A stretch of 64,000 nt of DNA, taken from contig JACPKP010000009.1 in NCBI GenBank assembly GCA_016186955.1, forward strand, positions 24,463 to 88,462. The letters run 5' to 3'. Made by a program: the position numbers and the translations under genes. The notes under the pieces were generated by a model, which saw only the letters and a program-made list of their open reading frames with translations, made no database searches and had not been told where the DNA came from. Shown here one piece after another: positions 9,793 through 44,106 of the stretch; position 1 is the stretch's first letter, and every line of letters begins with the position of its first letter. This DNA comes from Candidatus Daviesbacteria bacterium. GTDB taxonomy: Bacteria > Patescibacteriota > Microgenomatia > Daviesbacterales > UBA10151.

Positions 9793-10671
9793 ATGAAACT
9801 TTTTAAAAGTAAAAAACCTCAATATGAATATTTGCGTAAAAAATGGTTGCAGCGCCATAAAGAGATTACACAAAGAGTATTGGATAAACACTTCCGTAAG
9901 GCAGCGATAAGTTCCCTGGGAGGTTTAATACTTTTGACAACACCAGGCCTTTCCCTGCCTGCTGCCAATTTTATAGCCGACCAGGTCAATGTTACTGCCC
10001 AAGAGGATAGGAACGCTTTGATTAAAGCTGAGCTTTTAGATAAATTGCCGCATGAGATGAGAAACCTGTCAAAAGAAGAAGAGACTAAAATTACGGATGT
10101 TTTATCTAAAGATTTTGGCATTAAAGTTACAGGGGAGTTGGAAGGCAAAAGATTAAACAGGACATATGGTTTGATCGGTGGAGAACAACACCTATACAGA
10201 TATCCAGGGGATAATTTATTTGCGCATGCCAAAACTGTCCAGGATTTTGCGATGTATGGTGATGCGGGTATAGCGCCCGGATTGGGCGCTTGGGGTTACT
10301 TTGCCCCCTCAAAAGCAGAATTTACCCAAAAAGACGAAGAAAGGGAAAGATATTATATAGCGGTACAAACTTTTTTATCTTCTGGTTTTGCGGAAAGATT
10401 TAAAGAGTACCGGGATTTTTTTAAATTCCGTAAAATGTTATTAGCCAATCCAAAAACCGGGCAATCAGTGGTGGCGGTTATTGGTGATGCAGGTCCGGCT
10501 CAGTGGACAGGCAAGCATCTTGGCGGCAGCCCTGAAGTGATGCAGGGATTAGGTTTGGCATCAGGGCCGCGAAAAGGGCCGGTACTTTATTTTTTTATTG
10601 ATGACCCTGAAGATCAAGTTCCTTTAGGCCCAATAAAAATAGCTGAAAATGCTAAACTGGCAGTAAAGTAA
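9793..10671 (+). CDS. Hypothetical protein with an N-terminal signal/TM segment
   Basis: 292-aa ORF with a hydrophobic N-terminal segment. No motif. Confidence 0.5.
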   Translation: MKLFKSKKPQYEYLRKKWLQRHKEITQRVLDKHFRKAAISSLGGLILLTTPGLSLPAANFIADQVNVTAQEDRNALIKAELLDKLPHEMRNLSKEEETKITDVLSKDFGIKVTGELEGKRLNRTYGLIGGEQHLYRYPGDNLFAHAKTVQDFAMYGDAGIAPGLGAWGYFAPSKAEFTQKDEERERYYIAVQTFLSSGFAERFKEYRDFFKFRKMLLANPKTGQSVVAVIGDAGPAQWTGKHLGGSPEVMQGLGLASGPRKGPVLYFFIDDPEDQVPLGPIKIAENAKLAVK

Positions 10672-13550: not shown

Positions 13551-14936
13551 TTATAGATCCCCGTAAAATGTGAAATCTGCAGGTGTAGGATAGAGCAAAT
13601 GATCCATAGCCTCATCCCGTTTGACTTTAAGATAACTTTTAATTAAATCTTTTGAAAATACGCCGCTTTTTACCAAGGCAGTGTCATTTTCCAAATTATT
13701 CCAAATGTCAAAAAGGTTGTTAGCGGCCTGGGGAATATTTTTATTATCCCAAATATTTTCATCAAACGGACCGAAATTAAAATCTTTCGGTTTTAAATCT
13801 TCCCTGATCCCTTCAAGACCGTATATAAGCATTGCAGAAAAAGAAAGATAGGGGTTGCATGTTGGGTCAGGGGTCCTAAACTCTATTCTTTTTGATTTTT
13901 CTTCACCTGTATAATACATGGGTATTCTTATTGCAGCAGAACGGTTTCTTTTGGCGATTGCTTTGGAGGTAGGCGCCTCATATCCCGGAACAAGCCTCCG
14001 GTAAGAATTTAAGGTAGGGTTTGTAAACCCCAGGAGGGAATCAACATTTTTGAGGAGGCCTATTGCATATGACATGCCGGTATTTGATAATTCACCATAA
14101 CCTTTAGGGTCGTAAAATATATTTTTTCCGTCTTTAAAAATACTCTGGTGGGTGTGCATGCCTGAACCATTGTCGCCTTTGATTGGTTTAGGCAAGAAAC
14201 AGGCAACCAGGCCGTATTTTTTTGCCAGGTTTCTTGCTACATACTTGTACTTCATCACCTGGTCTGCTGTGTTTACCAAACTGCCATAATGCATGTCTAT
14301 CTCAACCTGGCCGGCAGTTGCAACTTCATGGTGGTGCACTTCTATTGTGATACCGATACTTTCTAAAATCCTGACCATTTCAGACCGGAACTCCTGAAGT
14401 TTGTCAAAGGGAGGAGTTGGGACATAACCTGATTTATTCTGGATAGGATATCCATCTTGTTCATCAGGGTTTTGATCCGGTAATTCACGGCTTTTGATTT
14501 CAAAATATGAGTGGTATGGGTTTGAACTGTAACTTAATTTATCAAAAAGAAAAAATTCTATTTCAGGGCCCCAGTATGATATGTCGCCAAAACCGCTTTT
14601 TTTAAGGTACTTCTCTGCTTTTTTTGCAGCGCTGCGGGGGTCTTTTCCGAAAGCCTGTTTTGTTTCAGGGTCGTAGATGTCGCAAATTACCGACAAAGTC
14701 CTTTCAAAAAAGGGGTCATTAAAATGGGTGGTAATATCAGGCACAAGGAGCATATCGCTTTGGTCAATGGATGAAAATCCCCTGATTGAGGATCCGTCAA
14801 ACCCAAATCCTTTACTGATATTATCAGGTGTATATTCATGGTAAGGGACACTTTTGTGTTGCCAAGTTCCGCGCAGGTCAATAAATATCAAATCAACAAA
14901 ATCAATATTTTCTAAATTTTTTTTGTCTTTTTCCAT
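13551..14936 (-). CDS. glnA: Glutamine synthetase type I
   Basis: DLRG near the N-terminus and GSGMHTHQS in the ATP-binding region. Length 461 aa. Confidence 0.9.
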   Translation of the reverse strand: MEKDKKNLENIDFVDLIFIDLRGTWQHKSVPYHEYTPDNISKGFGFDGSSIRGFSSIDQSDMLLVPDITTHFNDPFFERTLSVICDIYDPETKQAFGKDPRSAAKKAEKYLKKSGFGDISYWGPEIEFFLFDKLSYSSNPYHSYFEIKSRELPDQNPDEQDGYPIQNKSGYVPTPPFDKLQEFRSEMVRILESIGITIEVHHHEVATAGQVEIDMHYGSLVNTADQVMKYKYVARNLAKKYGLVACFLPKPIKGDNGSGMHTHQSIFKDGKNIFYDPKGYGELSNTGMSYAIGLLKNVDSLLGFTNPTLNSYRRLVPGYEAPTSKAIAKRNRSAAIRIPMYYTGEEKSKRIEFRTPDPTCNPYLSFSAMLIYGLEGIREDLKPKDFNFGPFDENIWDNKNIPQAANNLFDIWNNLENDTALVKSGVFSKDLIKSYLKVKRDEAMDHLLYPTPADFTFYGDL

Positions 14937-15024: not shown

Positions 15025-15798
15025 TCAAGTACCAAAAACTATAATTATAGATTCTGCGATATCCCTCATAGATTTTCGCCTGTTCATAGATTCTTTGCGG
15101 ATGAATTGATATGACTGCGCTTCATTTAATTTTTTATACTTCATCAACAGCCCTTTGGCTTTTTCTATCAATTTTCTTTCTTCTAAAGTATTCTCAAGGT
15201 GTAGCACCCGTCTTTTTAAAGTAATCTTTACAAAGGCAGACGCAATCAGTTGAACCAGTGAATTTATAGTCCTTACCTCCGTAACGGAAAAATTGTAAGG
15301 CATGCGGTTTTGCAGATTAATTACACCGACAACACCTCCGGAATCCAGTATCGGGATAGACATGAAGCTTTCATAGGTGTCTTCCGGCAGTTCCTTAAAA
15401 AATTTAAAACGGGGATCTTTATAGGCGCCCCTTTTTATAACGACCACTTCTTTGTGCGCTACAACCCAACCGGTGATTCCCTCCCCCTGGTGTAATATAA
15501 TTTTCCCCAACTGTTTTTTGTGGGGTTTTTTTGACCCAATTAAAATTACCTGTTTTTCGTCCCTGTCATGGAAATATATTAAGATAGAATCAGCAGGGAT
15601 AATTTCAGTAATGATTTTAATTAAGTTTTTTAGGAAAATATCAAAATCAAAGTGATTGAATACAACCAAATCGGATAGTAAGTTAATCGCTTTTGACAAG
15701 GAATTGCCTGGTTGGTTTTTAATTTGGGGCATAAACTTTGATCCGTCCGAGTAAATATTCACGTCTGTTTTTAGAAGAATCTTTAAGGACTTCTTCAA
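15025..15798 (-). CDS. GAF-ANTAR RNA-binding antitermination regulator
   Basis: Central GAF-like region. The C-terminal ANTAR signature is ERKLIEKAKGLLM...SYQFIRKESMNRRKSMRDIAESII. It lies directly upstream of glnA on the same strand. The start is probably the internal Met at MPQIKNQ. Confidence 0.7.
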   Translation of the reverse strand: MKKSLKILLKTDVNIYSDGSKFMPQIKNQPGNSLSKAINLLSDLVVFNHFDFDIFLKNLIKIITEIIPADSILIYFHDRDEKQVILIGSKKPHKKQLGKIILHQGEGITGWVVAHKEVVVIKRGAYKDPRFKFFKELPEDTYESFMSIPILDSGGVVGVINLQNRMPYNFSVTEVRTINSLVQLIASAFVKITLKRRVLHLENTLEERKLIEKAKGLLMKYKKLNEAQSYQFIRKESMNRRKSMRDIAESIIIVFGT

Positions 15799-17173
15799 AA
15801 AGTTTATTTAAAATTTCTCCAACCTTGGGTCCGGGTTTAATATTTAAAACTTTCATCACATCATGCCCGTTGATTTTTAAGTCACTGATGGTAAAAGGTT
15901 TTTTCAAAACTGCGGCAATTTTCTGTTGGAATTTTTCCATTCTCCACGAGACCTCTTTTTGGGTTCCTCCGCCCAGCCTGTCGCCGATCCTTAGGGCCAT
16001 CATATCATCCAGATTTTCTATGCCGGCATTTTTAATAAACCTTCTGATGGCGCTGTCTGTTTGGTTTTCTGAAACAGAAAACATATGCCAACGCACCAAA
16101 CGGTAAAGTTTATCAGCCTGTTTGTTGGATAAGTTAAACCTTCTGGCGATTGTAGTTACTTTCCTCCCTCCGTAAACATCATGATTGTAAAAAGTGACAT
16201 TACCGGTTTTGTCAATTGTTACTGTGTCCGGTTTGCCCACATCATGGAGCAAAGATGCTAGCCTGGTTAGCGGGTCCTTTGCCGGGCAGTATTTTAGTGT
16301 CAGCAGTGAATGTTCCCCTATATCATAGACTCTGCTATGTTTTGGTCCTTCCTGCTTCAAGCCAAAACATTTTTCCAGTTCCGGAAGAATAATTTGTAAT
16401 ATTCCCGCTTCCCTGAGTTTTAAAATTCCATCATATGAATTTTCAGCTGCCAATATTTTGAAAAGTTCATCCCTGATCCTTTCCCAGGCGATATTTTTAA
16501 TTAAAGAAGCGTTTTGTTTTATTGCCTCAAATGTTTTTTCTTCAATATTAAAACCGAGCTGGGTTGAAAATCTAATAGCACGCATGAGCCGCAGTGCATC
16601 TTCTTCAAACCTCAGATTAGGATTTCCGACAGCTTTTATAAGTTTATTTTTTATGTCCTGTTGACCGCTAAAAGGATCAACTAACGTCATTCTGGCCCGC
16701 TTCGCCGAAGCTCCCGCGAGGTGAGCTTGTCCAGAATCTCTCGTTTGGTTTGGTTCTGGAGTCGCTTCGCTCCCCAGAATGACGGATAAGGCTATAGCAT
16801 TTATAGTAAAGTCGCGGCGCGATAAATCATCTGCGATTTTATCAGTCCAACTAACATTAGTTGGATGCCGATAATCTCGATAATCTCCTTCTTTACGCAT
16901 TGTAGTTATCTCAACGAGTGATTGATCTCGGCCTTTATCGTAATGAATATTTTTTTCTGGGATGATTACAGTTCCAAAGCTGTTTCCGTAAACTCCTTCC
17001 GGAAAAATCTTTAAGATCTCCTCCGGTTTGGCATCAGTTGTAAAATCCCAATCTTTTACCCCCTTTTCCATTAAAAGGTCACGGACTGCCCCGCCGACAA
17101 TATAAATTTGATAATTGGCTTTTTGAAATTTATCTAAAATATTGAATACCTCTTTAGGGAATTTAAAATCCAT
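15719..17173 (-). CDS. cca: CCA-adding tRNA nucleotidyltransferase with HD domain, carrying a ~33-aa in-frame insertion
   Basis: YIVGGAVRDLL...DWDF head motif, RDFTINAIA, and a C-terminal HD region. The inserted peptide VILGSEATPEPNQTRDSGQAHLAGASAKRARMT is encoded by a palindromic repeat element. Confidence 0.85.
   Translation of the reverse strand: MDFKFPKEVFNILDKFQKANYQIYIVGGAVRDLLMEKGVKDWDFTTDAKPEEILKIFPEGVYGNSFGTVIIPEKNIHYDKGRDQSLVEITTMRKEGDYRDYRHPTNVSWTDKIADDLSRRDFTINAIALSVILGSEATPEPNQTRDSGQAHLAGASAKRARMTLVDPFSGQQDIKNKLIKAVGNPNLRFEEDALRLMRAIRFSTQLGFNIEEKTFEAIKQNASLIKNIAWERIRDELFKILAAENSYDGILKLREAGILQIILPELEKCFGLKQEGPKHSRVYDIGEHSLLTLKYCPAKDPLTRLASLLHDVGKPDTVTIDKTGNVTFYNHDVYGGRKVTTIARRFNLSNKQADKLYRLVRWHMFSVSENQTDSAIRRFIKNAGIENLDDMMALRIGDRLGGGTQKEVSWRMEKFQQKIAAVLKKPFTISDLKINGHDVMKVLNIKPGPKVGEILNKLFEEVLKDSSKNRREYLLGRIKVYAPN
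16686..16783. mobile_element. MITE-like palindromic element (about 98 bp) inserted in frame in cca
   Basis: Terminal inverted repeats GTCATTCTGG...CCAGAATGAC. Internal GCTTCGCCGAAGC/CGCTTCGC palindromes. It shares its GTCAT(T/C)C termini and CGAAG core with copies at 27896, 30895 and 56062. Confidence 0.6.
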
Positions 17174-17236: not shown

Positions 17237-18946
17237 TTGATGGGCAAACGGCATTCTTATGAAAAAGGGATAGTGCATCTGCTACCACTGGTTCTGATTG
17301 CTGCGGTTGGTGTTATCTCTTTTTTGTTAATATCTTCAACAGCGCCGTTTAAAGGCAACCTATTTGACAAACTTTTCCCTAAGCACCGTCCCAAGGCGGC
17401 TATAGCAGATTGTTCTGCAACGGCAGTAGGGACTGCCTGTCTTTATTTATCGCCAAAGAGTAAGACAGTAGCCCCTTCTACTGCTTTTGCGGTTCAGATC
17501 AGGGTTAACTCAAATGGAGTCAATGCTAATGCTGCGGAAACAGTAATAACATATCCGACTAATATTTTTAAAGTTGACAACATAGATTATACAGGCAGCG
17601 ATTTTGACGTTAAGGCGCAGGAGACAAATACCCCCGGATTGATTGATTTAGTTAGGGGGTCTACTGTGCCACAACAGGGGGATAAGTTAATTGCTACTGT
17701 AAATTTCAGCTCGCTTACCACAGAAGCCTCCTCGGTTGTAGATTTTGATACTAACTCGTCTGTATACTCCGGGGCAACCAATATACTACAAAATACTCTC
17801 GGGGGGGTTTATGCCGTAAAAGTAAACTTTGCAGCCGGCCAGGCAAGTTTTCTATTGAGCGCCCCTTCAACAACATATTCTGTCGGGCAACCGGTTTCAG
17901 CCAGTCTAAGCGTTAGGGCCGATACCGATGAAGCTAATCTGTTTTCTGCTAAGATCCATTTTGATAATACGAAATTGCAGGTTGTAGGAATTGATACAAC
18001 AGGCACATTTGTACAAAATTGGGTTGATAATTTTTCTGATAATTCCACAGGTGAGATTTCTCTGGTGGGGGGAGTGCCAACCCCTGGTTACAAAACTGCC
18101 GGTGCAGACAGCCTGATGGCAAAAGTCAATTTTAATACCATTGGAGCCGGCGCTGCTGCGGTAGACTTTGAGGCAACTTCGGCGATATACCGTAATTCCG
18201 ACAACACAAATATGTTAAACACAACACAAAACTTGTTGATAACTATTAACCCGGGTGCGACCCCAACACCGACTCCAACTCCGACGCCTACACCTACGCC
18301 CACGCCAACTCCTCCCCCAACTGCAACACCTACTCCAACAGCTTCACCTACCCCAACCCCAACGCCCATAGCTTGTTCTATAAGCAGTGCAAGTTGGGAT
18401 TTTATAGATCCCAGTAATACAGCAGTTATCGAAAGTGCAGTAGTTGGGTTGAAAATAAATGGGACAGGCGATTGCAACGGGCAAAGCGTACAAACCAAAG
18501 TGAAACAGGCAGGTTTATTTGTCAATGAAGCGGTCAACACCCAACCGTCTGCCGCCACATTCAACGGGAACACTGCGGTAACTTCATGGTTGAGTGAATA
18601 CCATCCTGACGGTCCTTTTGGGATTGGATTATTTGATCCGCCTGATTACTATTTCACAGCTAAATTGGCTGGCGGTACTAATGAATTTTCATCAAGTGAC
18701 CCCAAACTGCAGGTTAGACAGGCTGGTGCACCTAATTTTAGAAAGGGTGATGCTAACCATGATGACGTAGTAGATTTCCAGGACCTTTCAGTACTGCACA
18801 CCCATTGGCTTGATAATAAAGCCACCAATCCGGAACAGTGGATTACAGAATTGGATGTAAACGATGATAATGACCTAAATACCATAGATTTCTCCGGTAT
18901 AATATTGGTGCTTTGCGGGAATGGTTTAGTGAAAGCCTGCAATTAG
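17237..18946 (+). CDS. Secreted/anchored protein with two cohesin-like domains, a Pro-Thr linker and a C-terminal dockerin-like domain
   Basis: N-terminal leader with TM helix. Cohesin-like repeats are similar to ORF 25478. The PTPTPTPT linker runs 18244-18355. The C-terminal Ca-binding repeats are GDANHDDVVDFQDLSVL and DVNDDNDLNTIDFSGIIL. Confidence 0.6.
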   Translation: MMGKRHSYEKGIVHLLPLVLIAAVGVISFLLISSTAPFKGNLFDKLFPKHRPKAAIADCSATAVGTACLYLSPKSKTVAPSTAFAVQIRVNSNGVNANAAETVITYPTNIFKVDNIDYTGSDFDVKAQETNTPGLIDLVRGSTVPQQGDKLIATVNFSSLTTEASSVVDFDTNSSVYSGATNILQNTLGGVYAVKVNFAAGQASFLLSAPSTTYSVGQPVSASLSVRADTDEANLFSAKIHFDNTKLQVVGIDTTGTFVQNWVDNFSDNSTGEISLVGGVPTPGYKTAGADSLMAKVNFNTIGAGAAAVDFEATSAIYRNSDNTNMLNTTQNLLITINPGATPTPTPTPTPTPTPTPTPPPTATPTPTASPTPTPTPIACSISSASWDFIDPSNTAVIESAVVGLKINGTGDCNGQSVQTKVKQAGLFVNEAVNTQPSAATFNGNTAVTSWLSEYHPDGPFGIGLFDPPDYYFTAKLAGGTNEFSSSDPKLQVRQAGAPNFRKGDANHDDVVDFQDLSVLHTHWLDNKATNPEQWITELDVNDDNDLNTIDFSGIILVLCGNGLVKACN

Positions 18947-18957
18947 ATAAATAGGTC

Positions 18958-20511
18958 ATGAAAAATTTTGATCAAAAGGCTTTTATCCATGCCCCGTTGT
19001 TGCTTCTTCTGGCCGCCTTTGGGTTAATCACTTTTCTTTTATTTACCTTTAACTCATCTTTTAAAAATGGCCTGTTTTCTTATCTTTTCCCAAAACCACC
19101 CTCCCATGCTGCTACTGCTGTAGATGTAACTTCCCAACTTGAAAATTTAGGTAATCCCTTCACTGCGAAACCCACCTATGCCAGGAATGTTTGGGATATG
19201 CAAAACTTTAATGGAAAAATCTATTTAGGGCATGGGGATTTTAATAGCAATGCCGGGCCGATTGATGTTTTCTATTATGATCCAAGCTCCTCAACCTTCT
19301 TGAAACAAGCTACTTCAGGCAATAGTTGTGGTTCAACATGTGTGGATGAGGAGCAGCTTGGGATATATCACATTTTTAACAATACCCTTTATACTCCTGG
19401 GATTGACCCAAGAGGATCAGTTCCTGCCGGCAATTTCTACCGCATAGAAAATGGTTCTTTAACCAAGCACAATACCATTTCTCCTTTAAATCTTCACACT
19501 TATGATATTTATAAATTTGGAACTGCTCTTTTTGCTGCAGGTTATGGCACCAACACTTCCCAAGGATTAGCAATTTCTACTAATGATGGTGTCAGCTGGA
19601 CAGCGCCCGCTTATGGCAATGAAAACACTACTGATGGTGGTTCCTCCACCTATAAAGGCGGCGCTAATAACTTTTTTGAGATTGGAGGAAAATTATATGT
19701 CGCAGGTACCTTTTACAGACAAGGCCAGGATACCAGTGGCAACTGGTGGCAACACTTTATAAATATTGCCCGTTTCGACGGAGGGAATCTTTTTACCATA
19801 GTTAACTGGGACGCTGCTAAGGCCATGTTTCCTGGCTTTCAGGGCACTTCAGTTGTGGCTGGAACACCTTCGCTTACTATTACCGGCAACTTAATCCTTA
19901 CAAGATGGGTAAATTTCAATAACCAACTTGTCTATATTGGCGAGGATAGCGGTGTGCCAAAAGCCTTATTTAAAGCTGCCACTTTTGGTACAGGCCAGGT
20001 TATCACTTTGCCTGATAACGCCCTGCCCAGGGATATTTTAGTTTCAGGAGGAACTGTCTATGTTTTAGCGTCAACTGGATCAGGCTCCACTTATACTAAC
20101 TATGTTTTTTCTTCAACTGATTTAAATACCTGGGATGAGGTTTTGCATTTTGGTTCAGATACTTTTGCCAGATCTTTTGAGATGTTAAATGGGGACTTTT
20201 ACTTTGGCCTAGGGACTGACTCAACTACCTCCCCTTCTCCCTCAACAGGTAATATTTTAAGGGTAAAACAAGCTGCTTATCAACCGCCACCTTCACCTTC
20301 TGCACCTATCTCAGAGCCAATTACCCCTTCGCCAACCCCTACCCCAGGCCCCAAGCAAGGGGATATCAATGGGGATAACAAGGTGGATATAATTGACTTA
20401 TCAGTACTTTTGTCTAACTGGCTTGGCACAGATACCAGCTCTGATATAAACAAGGATGGCAAGGTTGGTATTATTGATCTATCAATACTTCTATCCAACT
20501 GGCTAAAGTAA
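18958..20511 (+). CDS. Secreted protein with a C-terminal dockerin (two DINGDNKVDIIDLSVL / DINKDGKVGIIDLSIL repeats)
   Basis: Conserved N-terminal leader. The body may be a beta-propeller or lectin-like domain. Dockerin type I-like repeats at the C-terminus. Confidence 0.6.
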   Translation: MKNFDQKAFIHAPLLLLLAAFGLITFLLFTFNSSFKNGLFSYLFPKPPSHAATAVDVTSQLENLGNPFTAKPTYARNVWDMQNFNGKIYLGHGDFNSNAGPIDVFYYDPSSSTFLKQATSGNSCGSTCVDEEQLGIYHIFNNTLYTPGIDPRGSVPAGNFYRIENGSLTKHNTISPLNLHTYDIYKFGTALFAAGYGTNTSQGLAISTNDGVSWTAPAYGNENTTDGGSSTYKGGANNFFEIGGKLYVAGTFYRQGQDTSGNWWQHFINIARFDGGNLFTIVNWDAAKAMFPGFQGTSVVAGTPSLTITGNLILTRWVNFNNQLVYIGEDSGVPKALFKAATFGTGQVITLPDNALPRDILVSGGTVYVLASTGSGSTYTNYVFSSTDLNTWDEVLHFGSDTFARSFEMLNGDFYFGLGTDSTTSPSPSTGNILRVKQAAYQPPPSPSAPISEPITPSPTPTPGPKQGDINGDNKVDIIDLSVLLSNWLGTDTSSDINKDGKVGIIDLSILLSNWLK

Positions 20512-20523
20512 TATACTGGTTAT

Positions 20524-21084
20524 ATGCCCAGGAATTTAAACTCCAAAGGGATAATACACCTTAGCATACCAATACTACTTGCTATAGTTGGTGTGATAGT
20601 TTTTTTGCTGTTTTCATCAAGCGCATCTTTTAAAAACAAACTATTTTCCTCGCTTTTCCCTAAATTACCTGGTTTTGCAGCAACAGGTGCAATTTCCAAT
20701 ATTACAGACAATAGTGCTTCTTATCCCAATGGACAAATTCCAAAGTATGAAAAATATGAAGTTACCTTTGATGTGGCGACCAATGCTTCCAACCCCCAGC
20801 TGCCTTATGATCCTGCCCCTCCACCAGGCATGCAAGCTGGAGTAGGAGTGACAGTTAATGGAGAATTTTCCCAGGATAACTTTACTACCAAAACGGTTAT
20901 TCCTGCTTTTTACTATCAAAATTTTGACTACCAGGTTAAAAGTAACCGGGAATGGTTTTATCCTACCTCCAATTATTCCTGGAAGTTAAGGTTTGCACCG
21001 GATAAAGAAGGAACCTGGCAATACAGAATTACCGCCCAAGATAGCTCCGGAACTTCTACTTCCGGGCCCAAACCTTTACAGTAA
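20524..21084 (+). CDS. N-terminal fragment (leader plus 130 aa) of a dockerin-containing glycoside hydrolase, separated from the rest by a frameshift
   Basis: Has the same leader as the 18958 and 23481 proteins. The reading frame of the downstream ORF opens at 21045, overlapping this ORF's 3' end in a different frame. Confidence 0.5.
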   Translation: MPRNLNSKGIIHLSIPILLAIVGVIVFLLFSSSASFKNKLFSSLFPKLPGFAATGAISNITDNSASYPNGQIPKYEKYEVTFDVATNASNPQLPYDPAPPPGMQAGVGVTVNGEFSQDNFTTKTVIPAFYYQNFDYQVKSNREWFYPTSNYSWKLRFAPDKEGTWQYRITAQDSSGTSTSGPKPLQ

Positions 21085-21185
21085 CCCCAAATTCTACCAA
21101 CCATGGTTTTGTTAAGGTTTCCAAAAAAGACCCCAGGTATTTTGAATATGATGACGGAACTTATTTTCCAGCTCAAGGCTACAAC

Positions 21186-23468
21186 ATGACTTGGGGAGAA
21201 ATTAGCTGGGATAATCCGGTTTTATTCAATCAGGCTAATTTCCAGAAAATGGGCCAAAATGGAGTTCAGCTTATTAGAAACTGGCTATCAGATTGGGGTA
21301 TTTTTGCTTCTGATGACCAGCCTTGGACTGGTGTTTCAGGCAATGCTGCCAACAATCCGGGGGTTAGGGTGCCTTATATTCCTCCCGCAACATCTCCTAC
21401 AGTGGTACCGCCTTTTGGCAGTTCAGATGTCGAGTTTCAGATTCAACATTACTACAATCCATGTAACTTTTATGGAGGGTGGCATGATGGCCAAGGCCCG
21501 GCTGTCAAGACCAACACTAAATACCGTGTTTTTATTAGATACTTAATTCCCCAAGCTTTGCCACAAGCTGTAGATACTACTAAACCGTCTGGTTTGGTAG
21601 CTAAAGTCTCAGGCTGGCTAGATGCACCTTTGACCAATCCAAACAATAACTGTGCCAAGGCTGGTTCAGGAACAGATATAACACCTCATGTAACTCAGGT
21701 ATCCAGCAAAGATGCAAACGGGAATTGGCAATGGCAGATTTTAGAGGGAACAATCGATCCTAGCTTAATTGGTACTAAAAACTTTTTAGGTAGGATTTAT
21801 CTTTCCATGGATAATATAGATCATCTCACCGTTCCTGCTCCAGGTGTAGGTGAAATAATTTGGGTGGATAGGATTGAAATTAGAGAGGATTTGGGTGACA
21901 ACTTATGCGCGGCTGCCTCAGGTTCAGGAGCCCCGTTTGATTTGAGTAATGGGAAATGCGGCACCAACATTATGACTGCTCCCTGGTCTTCCTACAACCA
22001 GTATTACAACCAAAGGTTTTCCTTATCATTTGATAAAGCTTTAGAACTGGCCCACCAAAATAATGTTTATTTGAAACTGGTAATTTTGGAGAAAAATGAA
22101 TATATCCAAAACCATATTGATTATTTAGGCAGAGGTATTTTGGATAACCAGACGGGTTGCCTTCAACCCTATGGGGTAGTAGAGTGTCCAAATAACAATT
22201 GGTTTTATGGTAATTGGCGGAGTGTGACTAAGACCAGATGGCTTCAGCAAGCCTACTGGAGATATCTTCAGGCCAGGTGGGGTTATTCAACTAATGTTCA
22301 CTCCTGGGAACTTATTAATGAAGGAGATCCATTTAGTGGTTTGCACTACACCTTGGCAGATGAGCTGGGAAAATATATGCATCAATTTGGGCCAAATGCC
22401 CATTTAGTTACCACCTCTAATTGGAACAGTTTTCCGGAAGGGACAAACCAACTTTGGGGCAACCCAAGTTTCCCAAACTTGGATTATACAGATGTTCATC
22501 ATTATATGATTAAAGGCCAAAATGGTTCTGTTAGGACTGATAAGAAATTTATGGGAGATAGCGTTACAGCCTTTCTGGCTCCGGATTGGTTTGACTCAGC
22601 TTCAGCGGTCAACAGAGTAAGCCAGGTCTTAAGCCCTCTTGGTATATATGGTGTTGGTAAACCCATTATGAGAGGAGAAACCGGCTTTGTGACTGGTAAT
22701 AGTGATGGCTGGAACAATGAAATTCAAAACGATACTAGTGGAGTTTGGCTTCATAAGTTTGTTTGGGCGGGGATTAATTCAGGGGGACTGATAGAAAGCT
22801 ATTGGTATAGCAAGCAACATATCAACCCATCGCCGACTAAGGATTTTACGCCGGAATTTGGCAAATATTACAACTTTATTAAAGATATCCCTTTAAGTAA
22901 TGGTAATTATCGGGAAGCCTCTGCTTCTGCCTCAGATACTAATTTGAGGGCTTGGGGGCAGAAAGACACAGTTAATAAAAGGGCGCATCTTTGGATAGAT
23001 AATAAAACCCATACCTGGGGTAATGTAGTTTATGCTACTCCATCTGCAACCATTGCTTCTGGAACTACGATAACTCTGCCTAATATGCCACAAGGCTCAT
23101 ACCCTATTTCCTGGATAGATACTTATGCTTCTCCCTCTGCCGCTTTAGTTAAAACAGAAACAGTTAACGTAGATGCATCTGGTAATTTAGTTTTATCCCT
23201 CCCTCAAGCTTTAACTAAAGATGTAGCTGTAAAAATTGGGGATTACTTTTCTCCGGCTCCTAACCCCTCTCTCAGCCCTTCTCCTATACCAACCCCTACC
23301 CCAGGTTCCAAGCAGGGAGATATCAATGGGGATAACAAGGTGGATATAATTGACTTATCAGTACTACTGTCCCATTGGCTTGGCACAGATACCAGCTCTG
23401 ATATAAACAAGGATGGCAAGGTTGGTATTATTGATCTATCAATACTTCTATCCAACTGGCTAAAGTAA
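21186..23468 (+). CDS. Glycoside hydrolase, clan GH-A (GH5/GH26-like), with a C-terminal dockerin; frame open from 21045
   Basis: WELINEGDP (acid/base NEP-like) and IMRGETGFV (nucleophile GE.G) motifs. C-terminal dockerin repeats identical to those of the 18958 protein. Confidence 0.6.
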   Translation: MTWGEISWDNPVLFNQANFQKMGQNGVQLIRNWLSDWGIFASDDQPWTGVSGNAANNPGVRVPYIPPATSPTVVPPFGSSDVEFQIQHYYNPCNFYGGWHDGQGPAVKTNTKYRVFIRYLIPQALPQAVDTTKPSGLVAKVSGWLDAPLTNPNNNCAKAGSGTDITPHVTQVSSKDANGNWQWQILEGTIDPSLIGTKNFLGRIYLSMDNIDHLTVPAPGVGEIIWVDRIEIREDLGDNLCAAASGSGAPFDLSNGKCGTNIMTAPWSSYNQYYNQRFSLSFDKALELAHQNNVYLKLVILEKNEYIQNHIDYLGRGILDNQTGCLQPYGVVECPNNNWFYGNWRSVTKTRWLQQAYWRYLQARWGYSTNVHSWELINEGDPFSGLHYTLADELGKYMHQFGPNAHLVTTSNWNSFPEGTNQLWGNPSFPNLDYTDVHHYMIKGQNGSVRTDKKFMGDSVTAFLAPDWFDSASAVNRVSQVLSPLGIYGVGKPIMRGETGFVTGNSDGWNNEIQNDTSGVWLHKFVWAGINSGGLIESYWYSKQHINPSPTKDFTPEFGKYYNFIKDIPLSNGNYREASASASDTNLRAWGQKDTVNKRAHLWIDNKTHTWGNVVYATPSATIASGTTITLPNMPQGSYPISWIDTYASPSAALVKTETVNVDASGNLVLSLPQALTKDVAVKIGDYFSPAPNPSLSPSPIPTPTPGSKQGDINGDNKVDIIDLSVLLSHWLGTDTSSDINKDGKVGIIDLSILLSNWLK

Positions 23469-23480
23469 TATACTGGTTAT

Positions 23481-25475
23481 ATGCCCAGAAATTTAAACTC
23501 CAGAGGGATAGCCCATCCAGCCATACTTATTTTCCTGGCTGTTGTGGGGATTCTTTTATTTTTGTTTATCACCTCAAGCGCATCTTTTAAAAACAATCTA
23601 TTCTCCTACCTCTTTCCTAAACCTAAATCTCAGGCTGCTACCACAAACCCCTGGGTCTCAGCTTACTATTTAGGTTATTTCTGGGACTGGATTTCAGACC
23701 CCACCCAAGCTGTTAATGCTGTGGATATGTCCACCATGACCCATCTGATCTTTGCCAGGTATGCCCCTGGATCAGGGTCAATGGGTGGAAGCGCAGGGCA
23801 GTTAATGAATGGTGCAGGTACAGGACATACAGCAGTTGAGGACCCTTTAATTGCCAAAGCCCACTCAAACAATGTCAAGGCTATCTTGATGATTGGCGGG
23901 GTGGGTGACGGAGGAGGCTTTGTGGCATCAACAGCCAATCCCACAATCCGGGCCACCTTTATCAGTAACATCTTAAATAAAGCTGTTGCAAAAAACTATG
24001 ATGGGGTGGATATTGACTGGGAAGACAGTCTTGATAATACAACCCAGCAAAACCAGCTGATTGCATTTCTAACAGAGCTAAGAACTGCTGCCAACAGTAG
24101 GCCCAGATACCAAACCCCTAACCAGCCGTTTATTATTACCTTTCCGGGGTTCTGGGCTAATTCTAATTTTGATACAGTCCAACCTGCCTGGAAAGTAACT
24201 GTGGCTAATTTAGTTGATCAATACAACTTAATGAGTTATGACATGATGTGGTGTTGTGATGGTTGGCAAACCTGGTTTTGGGCAGCGTTAAAAGGAGAAG
24301 CGCCTACTCATCCTACATCTTTAGAACATTCCATTCAAACGTATGTCAACGCCGGAGTTCCAAGAAGCAAATTAGGAATAGGTATAGGGTTATATGGCGG
24401 AGGCTGGAGAGCACCAGTGAATGGCCCAAGACAGGATCCTGGTACTGCTCAGGATTGGGGTGGAGATGATACCAATGATACTTATGCAGAGTTTTATAAA
24501 ACAGGAATGTTTGACCCTGCCTCTTTTTATTGGGATAGTGCTGCTCAGGTTGGGTATTATTCCTATAACCCGCCCAAAAGCTATCATGGCAATACTGTTT
24601 CATACCTTACTACTGAAGATGATCGGACAATTGCATCACAAGGAGCCTGGGTGAGGGCAGGTAATGCCGCAGGAACTATAGTTTGGGGTATTAATTATGG
24701 TGATGTTACCCCAACCAGTAATCCTGCTATGCAGGCTATTAAGCAGGCTTTCTTAAACCCAAATGCGACCCCAATTCCTACTCCCACAACCGGTCCAACT
24801 CCGCCTCCGCTTCCTTCGCCTACTCCTACCCCAACACCTACACCACTACCGTCAGGGATAATTAACATAGGTGAGACTAATATTTTAACTATTCCTGACA
24901 ACGGCAACGCTAATCTTTTAATTGCCCAACAAACTACGCTAGCCCAAACTGCCACAATACAATCTTTGTCCTTCTATGTTACTAATGCAGCAGGCAATCT
25001 GCGTTTGGGAATCTATGATGCTACAGGACCTGGAGGAGGGCCTGGTGCTAAAAAAGCTGAATCAAATTCATTTACCCCTATTGTTGGCTGGAACACTGCG
25101 AATGTAATATCTCCGGCATTACTTCCAGCGGGGACATATTGGCTGGCATATTTACCCAGTGATGGTAATTTAACTTTTGTCAAAGACTATCCAGGAGCTG
25201 CTGCATACTATTCATATAACTTTGGAGTTATGCCAACAACTTTCTCCACTGCTCCCAATACTGAAGGAGTCCACTGGTCACTCTATGCCACTTTTAACAG
25301 CGCTACTGTGCCTACTTTGCCAGGTGATTTAAATGGAGATAACAAGGTGGATATAATTGACTTATCAGTACTGCTGTCCCATTGGCTTGGCACAGATGCC
25401 GGCTCTGATATAAGCAAAGACGGTAAAGTTAATATTGTAGACTTGTCAATACTTCTATCTAACTGGCTGAAATAA
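23481..25475 (+). CDS. Glycoside hydrolase family 18-like (chitinase-like) protein with a PT linker, a beta-sandwich domain and a C-terminal dockerin
   Basis: YDGVDIDWE fits the GH18 DxxDxDxE catalytic motif. Has the N-terminal leader and C-terminal dockerin repeats. Confidence 0.65.
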   Translation: MPRNLNSRGIAHPAILIFLAVVGILLFLFITSSASFKNNLFSYLFPKPKSQAATTNPWVSAYYLGYFWDWISDPTQAVNAVDMSTMTHLIFARYAPGSGSMGGSAGQLMNGAGTGHTAVEDPLIAKAHSNNVKAILMIGGVGDGGGFVASTANPTIRATFISNILNKAVAKNYDGVDIDWEDSLDNTTQQNQLIAFLTELRTAANSRPRYQTPNQPFIITFPGFWANSNFDTVQPAWKVTVANLVDQYNLMSYDMMWCCDGWQTWFWAALKGEAPTHPTSLEHSIQTYVNAGVPRSKLGIGIGLYGGGWRAPVNGPRQDPGTAQDWGGDDTNDTYAEFYKTGMFDPASFYWDSAAQVGYYSYNPPKSYHGNTVSYLTTEDDRTIASQGAWVRAGNAAGTIVWGINYGDVTPTSNPAMQAIKQAFLNPNATPIPTPTTGPTPPPLPSPTPTPTPTPLPSGIINIGETNILTIPDNGNANLLIAQQTTLAQTATIQSLSFYVTNAAGNLRLGIYDATGPGGGPGAKKAESNSFTPIVGWNTANVISPALLPAGTYWLAYLPSDGNLTFVKDYPGAAAYYSYNFGVMPTTFSTAPNTEGVHWSLYATFNSATVPTLPGDLNGDNKVDIIDLSVLLSHWLGTDAGSDISKDGKVNIVDLSILLSNWLK

Positions 25476-27797: not shown

Positions 27798-27895
27798 TCT
27801 GTCTTTTTGCAGCGGATGTCACTGCAAATTGTAGCCAATCTTTGCTTGGTTTTAAAGACCTGCATATGTAACTATTCAGTTTTTTCCAATCAAAC

Positions 27896-27966
27896 GTCAT
27901 CGCGAGGTCCGACGTACATCGGACCGTGGCGATCTAATAAGATTGCTTCGCTACGCTCGCAATGAC
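27896..27966. repeat. MITE-like palindromic element copy (about 71 bp), intergenic
   Basis: Termini GTCATCGCGAGG...CGCTCGCAATGAC. Internal perfect hairpin GGTCCGACGTACATCGGACC. Contains the GCTTCGCT core. Confidence 0.5.
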
Positions 27967-28006
27967 GAAACTGCTGGGAAGAACTGAACTCATACTCAAC
28001 AATGTA

Positions 28007-30683: not shown

Positions 30684-30894
30684 TCTTTAAAAGTTTGGGT
30701 TTTTAGGTTCTTACCTAAAAAGACCTCCCAAAAGCACTCCAATAAAGAGCACCAAAGAGAGGTTTACAATTAAAATACCAAAATTTCTAGGATATAGGGT
30801 TTGCGTATATGACATAACTTAAGATTATTATAAGTTTTTTAATAAACCTTGTCAAGGAGGCTTGAAGCTGGTAAGATGGATCAAGCATCCCACT

Positions 30895-30956
30895 GTCATT
30901 CCCGCGAAAGCGGGAATCTATAAAAGTTATGGATCCCCGATTAAATCGGGGATGAC
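30895..30956. repeat. MITE-like palindromic element copy (about 62 bp) upstream of aspS
   Basis: GTCATTCCCGCGAAAGCGGGAATC....GGATCCCCGATTAAATCGGGGATGAC. Each arm is itself a hairpin. Translated, it gives the SRFRGNDS-type peptide seen in spurious ORF 30787-30984. Confidence 0.5.
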
Positions 30957-30971
30957 AAAAAAAGAAACATA

Positions 30972-35897: not shown

Positions 35898-36875
35898 TTG
35901 GTATATAATACCTCCAGAATGAATCCTAAAGAGCTATACCAGAGCGCGTCAGCAAGTTTTTGGCAAGGACGGGGTGACGGCGGCAGCTTTGACAGGTATT
36001 TCAAAAATGTTAAATGCATTGATATCCGGAAAGAATCGCCTCCTCCTCAAAGTTTTTCCATAGCCGGTTTTAAATGCGATGAGGGTGTCAGAAGGAATTT
36101 GGGACGGCCCGGGGCTTTTAAAGGCCCGGACCGGATCAGGCATTTTTTGGCGACGCTTGCCTATCATATTGATCCCCGCCGACAGATCTATGACCTGGGG
36201 GATGTTACCTGCACTGATGGAGAGTTGGAACGCTCCCAACTTGAGTTGTCATCTCTTGTCGCGGCAGCTTCCTCAAAAGGCTCATTTACTACGGTTTTCG
36301 GAGGAGGTCACGAATTGGCATGGGGGCAGTACCAGGGCCTTGCACAAAATTTTAAAGAGATCGGGGTTGTCAATATCGACGCCCATTTTGACCTGCGGCC
36401 TCTTGAAAACGGCAAGGGGACATCTGGCACATCCTTCAGGCAAATTGCTGATTACTGCAGAGAAAACAACCTGCCATTTGACTACCTTTGTATAGGCATC
36501 CAGCCTGAAGGGAACACACCCTATCTTTTTTCCGAAGCGGAGAGACTCGGCACAAAATATATTCTTGCGGAAGATGCATATGCCCTCTCCAGTGCGGAAG
36601 AATTTATTTCGGGCCAAAAATCCATTTACCTGACTATCTGTCTTGACGTTTACGCGCAAAACTTTGCCCCGGGCGTAAGCGCACCGTCCCCCTTCGGCTT
36701 GACTCCTGCCCAGGTTAATAGATATCTGAAGATGCTTGCAAAGTCTAGAAAAGTCATTGGGTTTGGCATTGCCGAACTGGCGCCCAAATTTGACAAAGAT
36801 AATATAACAGCCCGCCTTGCCGCACTTTCAACAGCCTATTTTTTAAGGAATTACAAATTTTATGGAAGTTTTTGA
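35898..36875 (+). CDS. hutG: Formimidoylglutamase (arginase/ureohydrolase family)
   Basis: GGGHELAWG, IDAHFDLRP and LDVYAQ ureohydrolase motifs. It sits in the operon with hutI, hutH and hutU. Confidence 0.65.
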   Translation: MVYNTSRMNPKELYQSASASFWQGRGDGGSFDRYFKNVKCIDIRKESPPPQSFSIAGFKCDEGVRRNLGRPGAFKGPDRIRHFLATLAYHIDPRRQIYDLGDVTCTDGELERSQLELSSLVAAASSKGSFTTVFGGGHELAWGQYQGLAQNFKEIGVVNIDAHFDLRPLENGKGTSGTSFRQIADYCRENNLPFDYLCIGIQPEGNTPYLFSEAERLGTKYILAEDAYALSSAEEFISGQKSIYLTICLDVYAQNFAPGVSAPSPFGLTPAQVNRYLKMLAKSRKVIGFGIAELAPKFDKDNITARLAALSTAYFLRNYKFYGSF

Positions 36876-38082
36876 TGAGCTTTGGCTGGATGTAAATATT
36901 GCAACCATGTCAGGAGAAAATTATGGTGTCATACCAGCAGGCGCTATCGGTATTTCGGGGGAAAAAATTTCATGGGTTGGCAGACAAAAAGATTTAGGGA
37001 AAAAGGCTTTAAACTCAGTCAAAAAGATCCACCGGGGCAATAATTTTTGGGTAACGCCGGGACTTATTGAATGCCATACGCATTTGGTATACGGGGGAAA
37101 CAGGGTTTGTGAATTTGAGATGCGCCAGAAAGGTGTAAGTTATGCCCAGATCTCCAAAATGGGCGGAGGGATTAATGCAACAGTTCAATCCACCAGGGGT
37201 ACAAGTGAAGATGGGCTTTTCCTTAGCGCCAGGGAAAGGTTGTCCGGATTTCTTAAAGAAGGAGTAACCACCATAGAGATAAAATCAGGTTACGGGTTGG
37301 ATATGCAGACAGAGCTGAAAATGCTCAGGGTGGCTACACGTCTTCAGAGGCAGTCTTATGCAACAATCCAAAGGACATATCTTGGCGCACATGCAGTCCC
37401 TCCTGAATATAAAGGCAGGGCAGATGAATACATAGATTTTTTATGTAATGAAGTTTTGCCGGAGATAAAAAAAGAAGAATTGGCTGATACGGTTGATGCA
37501 TTTTGCGAAAACATCGCATTCAATACTGACCAGGTGGAGAGGCTTTTTTTAAAAGCCAAAAAATTAGGCTACCCTGTTAAACTTCATGCGGAACAGTTAA
37601 GCGACCAAAAAGGGGCAATCCTTGCTGCAAAGTATCAAGCGCTCTCTGTTGACCATCTGGAATATCTGCAAGAGGATGGGATAAAAGCGATCGCAAAATC
37701 AGGCACCATTGCAGTCCTGCTTCCGGGGGCTTCTTACTACCTGAACGAAACCAAAAAACCGCCTTTGGAGTTGCTCAAAAATTACAAAGTCCCTGTAGCA
37801 ATATCCACAGATTTAAACCCCGGTACCTCACCCATTAATTCACTGCTTGCGGTTATGAACATGGCCTGTGTTTTATGGAAGTTTACTCCGGTAGATGCGC
37901 TTTTGGGTGTTACCGCCAACAGCGCCAAAGCATTGGGGTTGGGATCTGCGGTTGGAACAATCGAGACAGGGAAAAAAGCCGATTTTGTGGTTTGGGATAT
38001 CAGCCAACCCGCAGAGCTCTCTTACGGCATCGGTCTCAGTCCCCATAAAATTGTAGTAAAAAACGGGAAAATTATTCAGTGA
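36862..38082 (+). CDS. hutI: Imidazolonepropionase
   Basis: IECHTHLVYGGNR amidohydrolase signature typical of HutI. Confidence 0.85.
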   Translation: MEVFDELWLDVNIATMSGENYGVIPAGAIGISGEKISWVGRQKDLGKKALNSVKKIHRGNNFWVTPGLIECHTHLVYGGNRVCEFEMRQKGVSYAQISKMGGGINATVQSTRGTSEDGLFLSARERLSGFLKEGVTTIEIKSGYGLDMQTELKMLRVATRLQRQSYATIQRTYLGAHAVPPEYKGRADEYIDFLCNEVLPEIKKEELADTVDAFCENIAFNTDQVERLFLKAKKLGYPVKLHAEQLSDQKGAILAAKYQALSVDHLEYLQEDGIKAIAKSGTIAVLLPGASYYLNETKKPPLELLKNYKVPVAISTDLNPGTSPINSLLAVMNMACVLWKFTPVDALLGVTANSAKALGLGSAVGTIETGKKADFVVWDISQPAELSYGIGLSPHKIVVKNGKIIQ

Positions 38083-41881: not shown

Positions 41882-41895
41882 CTAAGCACAACAGA

Positions 41896-42362: not shown

Positions 42363-42631
42363 CTGATAAAGATTTCAAAAAGATAGGTAACTTACTTGAT
42401 GGGAAACTTGATGAGAAGTTAAAGGAATCTGAAAAAAGGCTCATGGGTGAAATAGGTGATTTTTTTGACCAAAATTTACTACCACAAATAGCAGAAAAGG
42501 CAGACAAGACTGATATATACCGTCTGGAGAGAAAATTGGATAAAATATTTGACAAAGATTTTGAACAAGACAGAAGATTAGATAAAATTGAATCGGTTTC
42601 CGTCATTGCTCAAATTCCCCCTAGGCAATGA
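42359..42631 (+). CDS. Hypothetical charged helical protein (90 aa)
   Basis: ORF overlaps the next gene by 4 nt. No motif. Confidence 0.4.
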   Translation: MTDKDFKKIGNLLDGKLDEKLKESEKRLMGEIGDFFDQNLLPQIAEKADKTDIYRLERKLDKIFDKDFEQDRRLDKIESVSVIAQIPPRQ

Positions 42632-44106
42632 CCTTTTTAAAAATCAAACAAAGCTTTTTGTTGGTAATAATTTTAACAATTTTACTTTTTATTTTTTATT
42701 CTTTTAGGTTAGCCGAAACGCCCGACGGTATTACTGCAGATGAGGCTTCTTATGGGTATAACGGAATATCACTTGCGGATAACTTGCATGACCAGAATGG
42801 AAGATTTCTCCCCATCTTTATCCTGGGGACGGATGGAGTTACTTGGTATCCACCGTACATGCAATATTTGGCGGCTTTGTTTTTTAAGCTGCTTGGCCCT
42901 TCAGTGTTTGCTATGCGCTTCGCTACTGTTTTTGTAACAGTTTTGTCAGCTCTTTTAATGTTCTATTTTGCCAGACTACTTTTAAACAAAAAATATGGCC
43001 TTATAGCGCTTCTCTCTTTTATGATCACCCCCGAGGTATTGATTGAAACTCATACCCCATTTGAACACATGATAGTAATACCATTTGTTTTAATATGGTT
43101 GATAAGTTTGTATAAATACAAATTGCATTTGGAAAGAAAATATTTAATATTTGCAGCCCTGAGTTTAGGTATTAGTATTTATTCTTACGGAGGTGTCAGG
43201 CCACTAGTTCCTATTTGGGTTTTAGCTAGTAGTTTTTACATTATTTATTTGACTGGTAAGCAATTTCTAGCGCCGCTACTGACTTTTGCTGTTACCATTC
43301 TGCCTTTTTTTGCGATCATTCCAATCCTTGAACACTATTATTCAGGAGCAGTACTAAATCGTGTTAGTTTTAAGGTAAGCTCTATTTATAGTTTCTTTTA
43401 TTACTATCTGGCAAGTTTTGATATCTCTTTTTTGTTTGTCACCGGGGATAAACTATTAGTCCAATCAACCGGACGCCATGGCATGTTCCTTCTGTCAACA
43501 CTGCCTATATTTTTGGTAGGTATTTATCAGGCTTTTAGAAAAGGGTCTGCATTTTTAACTTTGTTGGGGGTAACTTTTTTCATCTCCCCATTGCTTTATG
43601 GTTTTGTAGGTTCTGCTTTTTTTGCTCATAGGCTACTTTATATGGTCCCATTCTATTGTGTTTTTTTTATTTTAGGGATCAAAAAGTTACTGGAAAACCG
43701 ATATAAATTTTTAAGATATGGCAGTTTTATCTTGATTTTTTTAATCATGATCAATTTTCTGGATTTTTGGCGTTATTATATTTTTAATTTTCCTAAAGAC
43801 ACATACCACCTTTTCCACCATCTTGAAGACCGAAACAAACCATATCAGGAGCTTTATCATCAAGCAAAAAACAGAGGGTTGGAACCATTTCTTTCAACAA
43901 GGGTTGCGCGCCTAGACAAAGTCAATATTAGTGATCCGGAACTTTTTTCCAGAGCGCTCTACTTCCCAAAATTGCCTAATGTTTTAGATGAGCAAAAGGA
44001 CCTCCTGCCTGAAAATGGCATATTATTATCAGATCAGGATAATTTACCTAATGTAAAAAAATTAGCAGTAGATATATTGCCTTTTCACCTCTATATCCGT
44101 CCATAG
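42628..44106 (+). CDS. Membrane glycosyltransferase of the GT39/GT83 (PMT/ArnT-like) family
   Basis: The multi-TM N-terminal part has ETPDGITADEASYGYNGISL, the DE-containing first loop typical of PMT_2/ArnT-like enzymes. Confidence 0.65.
   Translation: MTFLKIKQSFLLVIILTILLFIFYSFRLAETPDGITADEASYGYNGISLADNLHDQNGRFLPIFILGTDGVTWYPPYMQYLAALFFKLLGPSVFAMRFATVFVTVLSALLMFYFARLLLNKKYGLIALLSFMITPEVLIETHTPFEHMIVIPFVLIWLISLYKYKLHLERKYLIFAALSLGISIYSYGGVRPLVPIWVLASSFYIIYLTGKQFLAPLLTFAVTILPFFAIIPILEHYYSGAVLNRVSFKVSSIYSFFYYYLASFDISFLFVTGDKLLVQSTGRHGMFLLSTLPIFLVGIYQAFRKGSAFLTLLGVTFFISPLLYGFVGSAFFAHRLLYMVPFYCVFFILGIKKLLENRYKFLRYGSFILIFLIMINFLDFWRYYIFNFPKDTYHLFHHLEDRNKPYQELYHQAKNRGLEPFLSTRVARLDKVNISDPELFSRALYFPKLPNVLDEQKDLLPENGILLSDQDNLPNVKKLAVDILPFHLYIRP

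Follow-up and report, generated by a model that had tools for sequence, protein, structure and literature searches.

An in-frame palindromic insert in the cca gene of a Daviesbacteria genome resembles a dimer of CGTC-tagged REPs

The stretch of DNA analysed here, which we call the window, is 64,000 nucleotides long and lies on contig JACPKP010000009.1 of a Candidatus Daviesbacteria assembly. It contains the gene cca on the minus strand, which is predicted to encode a class II CCA-adding enzyme with an HD domain and which carries a palindromic element of about 100 bp inside its coding sequence (Table 1). NCBI holds a 100% identical protein annotated as a Candidatus Daviesbacteria CCA tRNA nucleotidyltransferase, and relatives of known structure in the Protein Data Bank (PDB) include 1MIV and 6IBP. 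A Pfam search of the open reading frame (ORF) recovered all four Cca domains (PolyA_pol, which is the head, PolyA_pol_RNAbd, HD, and tRNA_NucTran2_2) and the catalytic motifs GGAVRD..DWD, RRD, and EDALRLMRAIRF are all intact. A first-pass annotation of this DNA had also considered the ORF to be intact apart from the element.

That annotation placed an element of ~98 bp at 16686-16783, and the sequence there is as it described, reading GTCATTCTGG...CCAGAATGAC. One extra base pairs on each side to give CGTCATTCTGG...CCAGAATGACG, so that the element extends to 100 bp and its perfect terminal inverted repeat, first given as 10 bp, is 11 bp in full. This repeat by itself was rejected as evidence because the number of such repeats is not beyond chance: in the window there are 14 perfect 10-bp inverted repeats within 150 nt where 12.1 are expected, and six of 11 bp where 3.5 are expected. 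The significance of the element rests on its CGTC-AT tags, its composition, and an architecture common to other copies. Its GC content is 0.57-0.58 compared to 0.40 for the cca gene, and relative to shuffled sequences the z score is -3.2 for its predicted RNA fold (-36.9 kcal/mol) and -2.8 for its DNA fold. In-frame translation with cca on the minus strand gives VILGSEATPEPNQTRDSGQAHLAGASAKRARMT at residues about 131-163, which is the 33-aa peptide reported before. The gain in the gene is 33 codons (99 nt) and the 98 bp first assigned to the element are not a multiple of three; thus, the boundaries of the insert differ slightly from those of the palindrome.

Repetitive extragenic palindromic sequences (REPs) that carry a CGTC tag have been grouped into families CGTC-1 to CGTC-4 (Di Nocera, De Gregorio and Rocco 2013, BMC Genomics 14:522, PMC3733652). 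In these, an unpaired CGTC or TGTC tag (variant CCTC) lies outside a stem of 8-9 bp that almost invariably starts with AT, the loop is 4-5 nt with some families differing in loop length, and the tail is CCA. The units occur chiefly as head-to-head dimers in families of tens to thousands, mainly between genes; some units are found within genes, where dimers encode 20-30 aa, and no dedicated transposase is associated with them (PMC3733652).

Judged by its sequence, the cca element is a head-to-head dimer of hairpins of this kind. CGTC is present at both ends, the left stem starts A-T, T-A, and the right unit has a G.T mismatch at stem position one followed by T-A at position two. The other copies in the window, described below, carry CGTC or TGTC and start with AT, and the three dimers among them are also head-to-head. 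The loop of the left hairpin is GC-rich and atypically long (35 nt, 16696-16730), and the internal GC palindromes mentioned in the first-pass annotation are nested within it (GCTTCG..CGAAGC and AGCTC..GAGCT). The loop of the right hairpin is 14 nt long (16760-16773) and contains a GGAGCGAAGCGAC motif in common with the cca insert of locus L003. With the tags, dimer plan, and AT start of the family but atypical loops and stems, the cca copy would best be regarded as divergent or mosaic within it.

Table 1. Host gene, predicted parts of the cca element, and other tagged copies in the window.
Feature	Position	Strand	Basis or detail
cca ORF, predicted class II CCA-adding enzyme with HD domain; insertion host	15719..17173	-	484 aa; ORF listing
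Full element, predicted head-to-head dimer of CGTC-tagged REP hairpins	16685..16784		Sequence, fold, GC
Unpaired CGTC tag, left REP unit	16685..16688	+	Sequence; family definition PMC3733652
Left REP hairpin	16689..16737	+	Stem ATTCTGG (16689-16695)/CCAGAAT (16731-16737), 7 bp, starts A-T, T-A
Tails and short AT-richer spacer between REP units (CTCTCGTTTGGTTTGG)	16738..16753		Sequence
Right REP hairpin	16754..16780	-	Stem TTCTGG (16754-16759)/CCAGAA (16774-16779), 6 bp plus one G.T pair
CGTC tag, right REP unit (GACG on plus strand)	16781..16784	-	Sequence
Intergenic head-to-head CGTC-REP dimer (CGTC...GACG), downstream of recJ	27895..27967		Termini-based scan (27896-27966)
Intergenic canonical dimer, relA/spoT–aspS gap	30894..30957		Termini-based scan (30895-30956)
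Lone 31-nt intergenic hairpin with both tags (C-GTCATTGC...GCAATGAC-C)	42601..42633		Sequence scan
Intergenic dimer (TGTC...GACA, 115 nt core), LOG-family gene–transketolase gap	56061..56177		Termini-based scan (56062-56176)
Single CGTC/TGTC-tagged REP unit in copA	63025..63070	-	ATTCCC...GGGAAT stem, long loop

Six loci in the window carry the C/TGTC tags: four of them are dimers, one is a lone hairpin, and one is a half unit. The dimers follow a common plan: (C/T)GTC, an AT-starting hairpin, a short tail, a spacer, a tail, a second hairpin, and GAC(G/A). The three further copies reported in the first-pass annotation exist and are intergenic, and they are related to the cca copy by termini and architecture only; its count missed the lone hairpin and the half unit in copA. 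The dimer between relA/spoT and aspS reads TGTC-ATTCCCGC-GAAA-GCGGGAAT-C ... G-ATCCCCGA-TTAAA-TCGGGGAT-GACA. By scan, it has stems of 8 and 9 bp and loops of 4 and 3 nt, the latter becoming 8 bp and 5 nt when the innermost pair is counted as loop. Its left hairpin fits exactly the consensus ATTCCC-N8-GGGAAT of the neisserial repeat dRS3 (Bentley 2007, PMC1797815). The copA ORF (61681..63945, plus strand) reads its REP unit in frame, and the unit corresponds exactly to a gap of 15-16 residues where the nucleotide-binding domain begins, in comparison with the CopA structures 3RFU and 3J08. This half unit would be a second "protein-coding palindrome" in the window. We looked for direct repeats, as expected of target-site duplications, beside the six copies and saw none.

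Two of the intergenic copies supply an apparent start codon. The terminal ATGAC of the dimer before the transketolase (56172-56176) gives the first ATG of ORF 56172, which encodes the N-terminal half of that enzyme, and the terminal ATGAC of the lone hairpin gives the first ATG of ORF 42628, a PMT_2 glycosyltransferase.

We also searched for this architecture more widely. In 1.13 Mb of DNA from related Microgenomates genomes, a scan for dimers found nine, compared to none in a reversed-sequence control; it missed the cca copy, and the density of dimers across this DNA is low. A strict hairpin scan gave 11 hits versus 0-6 in the control. A relaxed half-site scan was discarded because it was no better than its reversed-sequence control (161 versus 155). 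When the canonical hairpin GTCATTCCCGC-N3-6-GCGGGAATC was searched for across 185,579 species genomes, it was found in at least 120 stretches from many phyla. Among the matches listed were Bacteroidota, Alpha-, Beta-, Gamma-, and Deltaproteobacteria, Chloroflexota, Planctomycetota, Nitrospirales, Verrucomicrobia, and Neisseria lactamica, as well as Saccharibacteria, Paceibacteria, and Parcubacteria from the candidate phyla radiation (CPR). These listed matches contained 174 canonical units, of which 170 were preceded by C (113) or T (57); the bases after the unit were C-A-G, and in 89 of the 174 an inverted partner ending ATGAC lay no more than 110 nt away, those with such a partner having a median unit length of 84 nt. 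Rfam returned no match for the cca element, either at the gathering threshold or with E values up to 10, and literature searches with its DNA and peptide strings gave nothing relevant. An intein, an intron, and translational bypass were each considered and rejected, as the insert is 33 aa long with no splicing motifs, an open frame, and no matched take-off and landing codons.

In the Cca protein, the insert sits between RRDFTINAIAL (motif B) and VDPFSGQQD (motif C). Alignment with 1MIV from B. stearothermophilus matched residue 130 of the query with residue 121 and residue 163 with residue 125, which places the insert at a three-residue turn; in most orthologues there are 4-6 residues here. 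In an AlphaFold model built with 31 orthologues, residues 136-157 lie between strands at 128-132 and 160-165 and have a model confidence (pLDDT) of <50. The alignment and the model both locate the insert at a beta-hairpin turn, as the earlier proposal of a surface loop that is short in other CCA enzymes had it. The product of the insert is probably a hydrophilic and disordered surface loop of about 33 residues.

Comparison with the best 120 Daviesbacteria Cca orthologues showed that the loop at this position (loop 2) has 2-6 residues in most of them and is minimal in about 60%. At least six extra residues were found at loop 2 in 34 of the 120 and at a second loop, after residue 75, in 41; no comparable inserts were seen elsewhere in Cca except at the termini. 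The closest orthologue (P0002, encoded at locus L001; 76% identical by BLASTP and 80% in the alignment) has an empty site, also at the DNA level. The insert in the window is thus lineage-specific, in agreement with what the first-pass annotation had proposed. Many inserts occupy this position in other orthologues, differing in family, frame, and length, and because they are neither conserved nor homologous they do not amount to an equivalent conserved segment.

To compare the insert DNA, we used 80 metagenomic loci and six further contigs. Several unrelated kinds of palindrome make up the inserts in orthologous cca genes. Loci L002, L003, L012, and L206 carry GTCAT...ATGAC dimers and L023 carries a half unit; CACCTCGGAGGTG-type palindromes are present in L007, L061, and L083, and other types in L034, L040, L048, and L080. 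Locus L205 (protein P0038) carries a textbook CGTC dimer of canonical stem and loop size in loop 2 in a different reading frame, and L204 (P0026) carries an 81-nt CGTC dimer in loop 1. Judged from frame and location, these two appear to be independent insertions of the CGTC family. The insert peptides of the orthologues are unrelated, with no common sequence, length, or charge pattern, and the types of insert are scattered across a crude, poorly resolved neighbour-joining (NJ) tree. Insertions have occurred repeatedly and independently in orthologues.

Three other observations concern these inserts. The CACCTCGGAGGTG family of palindromes, which translates as HLRGE, HLGGE, or TSEVG, is found at both Cca loops in many Daviesbacteria (L007, L061, L083, L206, L003, and L205) and once also in aspS (L003). 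The long loop of the window element contains a related AGCTCACCTCGCGGGAGCT core, with the peptide QAHLAGA. In the Microgenomates locus L023, the DNA directly upstream of the cca start (9856-9981) contains a CGTC-REP dimer and one more single unit in addition to the half unit in loop 2 of the gene, an arrangement that hints at local spread of repeats around cca.

Our preferred interpretation, and in our judgement a probable one, is that a selfish CGTC-REP dimer inserted into a beta-hairpin tip of Cca, where it is co-translated and tolerated and has no function for the enzyme. According to this interpretation, a non-autonomous selfish repeat made of two head-to-head CGTC-REP hairpins would have inserted at the DNA level into the codons for the beta-hairpin tip between motif B and motif C of the head domain. 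Because the insert is a whole number of codons and contains no stop codon, it would then be transcribed and translated together with cca. The resulting disordered surface loop of about 33 residues would be tolerated by the enzyme and do nothing for it, and the insert would persist because it does little harm. Copies may survive in both head-domain loops because these are among the few harmless sites for an extra peptide in an essential gene. By analogy with GTAG-tagged REPs and their RAYT transposases, the mover would most likely be a transposase or recombinase that recognises hairpins in single-stranded DNA. We infer that the insert is translated and tolerated by Cca and that the element moved as a unit.

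Several results weigh against this interpretation. The cca copy lacks the stem and loop sizes of the family: its stems measure 7 and 6 bp where 8-9 bp are usual, and its loops 35 and 14 nt where 4-5 nt are usual. Its tails, CTC and C-CAA, differ from the consensus CCA; in the canonical units of other genomes the tail is C-A-G or CCA. The cca copy may be an old one that has decayed, or a mosaic. BLASTN of the cca element against the window found no related copy. A Pfam scan of cca and 40 of the 53 ORFs of at least 100 aa in the window found no transposase match and none has been reported for CGTC REPs, so that the mobility of the element is putative. Finally, this exact Cca protein is on record from a single assembly.

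The decayed appearance of the window copy would also fit an insert that entered Cca in early Daviesbacteria and was inherited, diverging in place and becoming partly deleted or lost in different descendants, with the window copy as a decayed relic. We consider this a possible but doubtful explanation. It would account for the fact that most GTCAT-type inserts of loop 2 share one entry frame (V-I) and nearly one entry codon, that the junction TCC|GTCATT is common to the window and L206, that the near neighbour P0042 has a GTCATTCTG... insert, and that half units encoding a short VIPxxxGIQ lie at the same site. The empty site in the closest orthologue, the scatter of insert types over the NJ tree, and the presence of several unrelated palindrome families in the same loop argue against it, and it cannot explain L205, with its other frame, or L204, in the other loop. 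For the GTCAT subgroup, common ancestry is only weakened, because the tree is poorly resolved, and is plausible.

The clustering of inserts led us to weigh an account in which the head-domain loops of Cca are preferred, either because an insertion machinery targets the DNA there or because selection favours longer loops, for example for handling tRNA or for regulation in CPR bacteria; the palindromic repeats would in that case be mere raw material. Hairpin-forming inserts (at least 10 aa, hairpin z below -3 against mononucleotide shuffles) were found in 15 of 83 cca orthologues and in 4 of 458 orthologues of ten neighbouring genes (recJ, aspS, gltX, secD, secF, relA, and four others), a difference with a Fisher p of 4.5e-10 that is to be read with the caveats that the loci were chosen for containing cca, ORF calls were crude, and only mononucleotide shuffles were used. 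The cca inserts are confined to two or three head-domain sites, they include several palindrome families, and the HLRGE/CACCTCGGAGGTG family is present at both loops. The enrichment is real, but this account fits poorly with insert peptides so unlike one another and with the minimal loop in about 60% of orthologues, and plain tolerance at two exposed beta-hairpin tips suffices to explain the clustering; the caveats above count against this account as well. We regard a functional or targeted hot spot of this kind as unlikely. It is similarly improbable, in our view, that the two tips are specific recurrent acceptors of unrelated palindromes across Microgenomates, whether through targeting, for example of a DNA structure or sequence at these codons, or through positive selection for extended loops in this essential enzyme in place of mere tolerance.

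The first-pass annotation called the element MITE-like (miniature inverted-repeat transposable element), and the term applies loosely. A classical MITE, derived by deletion from an insertion sequence (IS) and moved by a DDE transposase with a target-site duplication, would have the 11-bp perfect terminal inverted repeat, the length of about 100 bp, and the lack of coding capacity of its own that are seen here. None of the six copies is flanked by direct repeats, and without a target-site duplication this is not a classical MITE; the termini are just the conserved tag plus variable hairpin stems, that is, the two REP stems of a head-to-head dimer. In addition, copies in the same genome are alike in architecture and not in sequence, and there was no IS or transposase match among the window ORFs scanned, making this origin very unlikely.

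That the element acts as RNA in the stability or translational pausing of the cca mRNA, or is an assembly artefact, and is not a translated segment is highly improbable: its predicted fold is strong and REPs elsewhere have been reported as RNA elements (PMC3733652), but Rfam gave no match, no structure is conserved across orthologous inserts, and the frame is open through the insert here and through those of dozens of orthologues in independent assemblies, with P0049 found on six contigs.

If the element is a CGTC-tagged REP dimer, it shares with the described families the tag, the A-T/T-A start of the stem, the head-to-head arrangement, the presence of units within genes, and the lack of an associated transposase; the canonical dimer between relA/spoT and aspS and the L205 cca insert are textbook examples. 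It differs from them in its large loops and short stems, in its CPR/Patescibacteria host, and in that copies in the source genome vary in stem sequence. The 2013 survey found CGTC REPs in five phyla, CPR not among them, and its supplement lists neither Cca nor an ATPase among the hosts of intragenic REPs (PMC3733652). The same survey equates Neisseria CGTC-1 with dRS3 and, in Rickettsia conorii, CGTC-1 with Rickettsia palindromic element 6 (RPE-6) and CGTC-4 with RPE-4.

The likeness of the insert to RPEs, which was drawn in the first-pass annotation, is well founded, as the superfamily to which the element appears to belong includes RPE-4 and RPE-6. RPEs were reportedly described by Ogata and colleagues in 2000. 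The classic one, RPE-1, is about 150 bp long and forms a distinct family. As a functional class they match the cca insert, which is an in-frame palindrome in an intact ORF at a position compatible with the fold; both are palindromic repeats within housekeeping genes that leave the host ORF intact and add putative surface loops. Unlike the copies in the Daviesbacteria window, Rickettsia copies of one family can be aligned, and the host lineage and lifestyle are different.

The dRS3 repeats and neisserial intergenic mosaic elements (NIMEs) were reportedly described by Parkhill in 2000. The left hairpin of the canonical dimer in the window (30895) is identical in form to dRS3, and the dRS3-RS-dRS3 unit also consists of inverted hairpins around a short variable spacer. 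By contrast, NIMEs are long intergenic arrays and filamentous phage integration sites, there are no arrays in the window, and the stems of the cca copy (ATTCTGG) fall outside the dRS3 consensus. IS110-type recombinases are known to target such hairpins, one example being the Neisseria filamentous phage that integrates into dRS3 (PMC1797815).

A further parallel is with REPINs and BIMEs, which are made of GTAG-tagged REPs and go with RAYT transposases (Bertels and Rainey 2011, PMC3116915). REPINs are likewise inverted doublets of REP hairpins that act as a non-autonomous unit, and by analogy they are likely to provide the mechanistic model for the cca element, namely hairpin-specific action on single-stranded DNA. 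They differ in tag (GTAG, not CGTC) and in being near-identical within a genome, which the window copies are not. No RAYT gene is known for the CGTC class, and the Pfam scan of 40 window ORFs gave no match to a RAYT (IS200/IS605-like Y1 transposase).

CGTC REPs, in-frame RPEs, and dRS3 are already known; what is new here is the host phylum, the large loops, and the site in Cca, which accepts palindromes with striking recurrence. Our literature searches found no report of CGTC REPs, palindromic elements, or MITEs in CPR bacteria, nor in cca. The CGTC-tagged REP superfamily (dRS3, RPE-4, and RPE-6) would thereby be extended to CPR/Patescibacteria, meaning that in-frame protein-coding palindromes also occur in streamlined genomes and are not peculiar to Rickettsia. 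A practical consequence for annotation would be that GTCAT...ATGAC hairpin pairs translating as VI(P/A/L)...(N/D)D or ...MT are treated as repeat-derived inserts and not as features of the enzyme. An in-frame REP is unsurprising to a specialist, and it is the hot spot in Cca that merits systematic study. The loops of Cca provide a natural experiment in which one essential enzyme has received dozens of independent peptide insertions at two sites, and this could be used to examine how well loops tolerate inserts, how protein segments arise from selfish DNA, and how CGTC REPs move.

The window contains several other features. At 41725-41882, two perfect tandem units of 43 nt come after tRNA-Gln(CTG), each composed of the final 10 nt of that tRNA (GTCCCGCAGC) and a 33-mer that forms a hairpin. 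Another GTCCCGCAGC comes after the tandem units, so that the 3' end of the tRNA is present three times. These units could be scars of att sites or a small repeat with the tRNA end as its target. Four tandem paralogous genes for secreted proteins occupy 17237-25475; the proteins have in common their signal regions at the N terminus (repeat family D3), linkers rich in Pro and Thr, and dockerin-type domains at the C terminus (repeat families D1 and D2). A histidine utilisation cluster that looks complete lies at 35898-41573, with genes for an arginase-family formiminoglutamase, an amidohydrolase resembling imidazolonepropionase, histidine ammonia-lyase, and urocanase. Together with a glutamine synthetase gene at 13551-14936, this cluster is notable metabolism for a CPR genome. 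On the minus strand, a giant ORF (46696-53106; 2136 aa) contains stretches that are Gly/Ala-rich and GC-rich.

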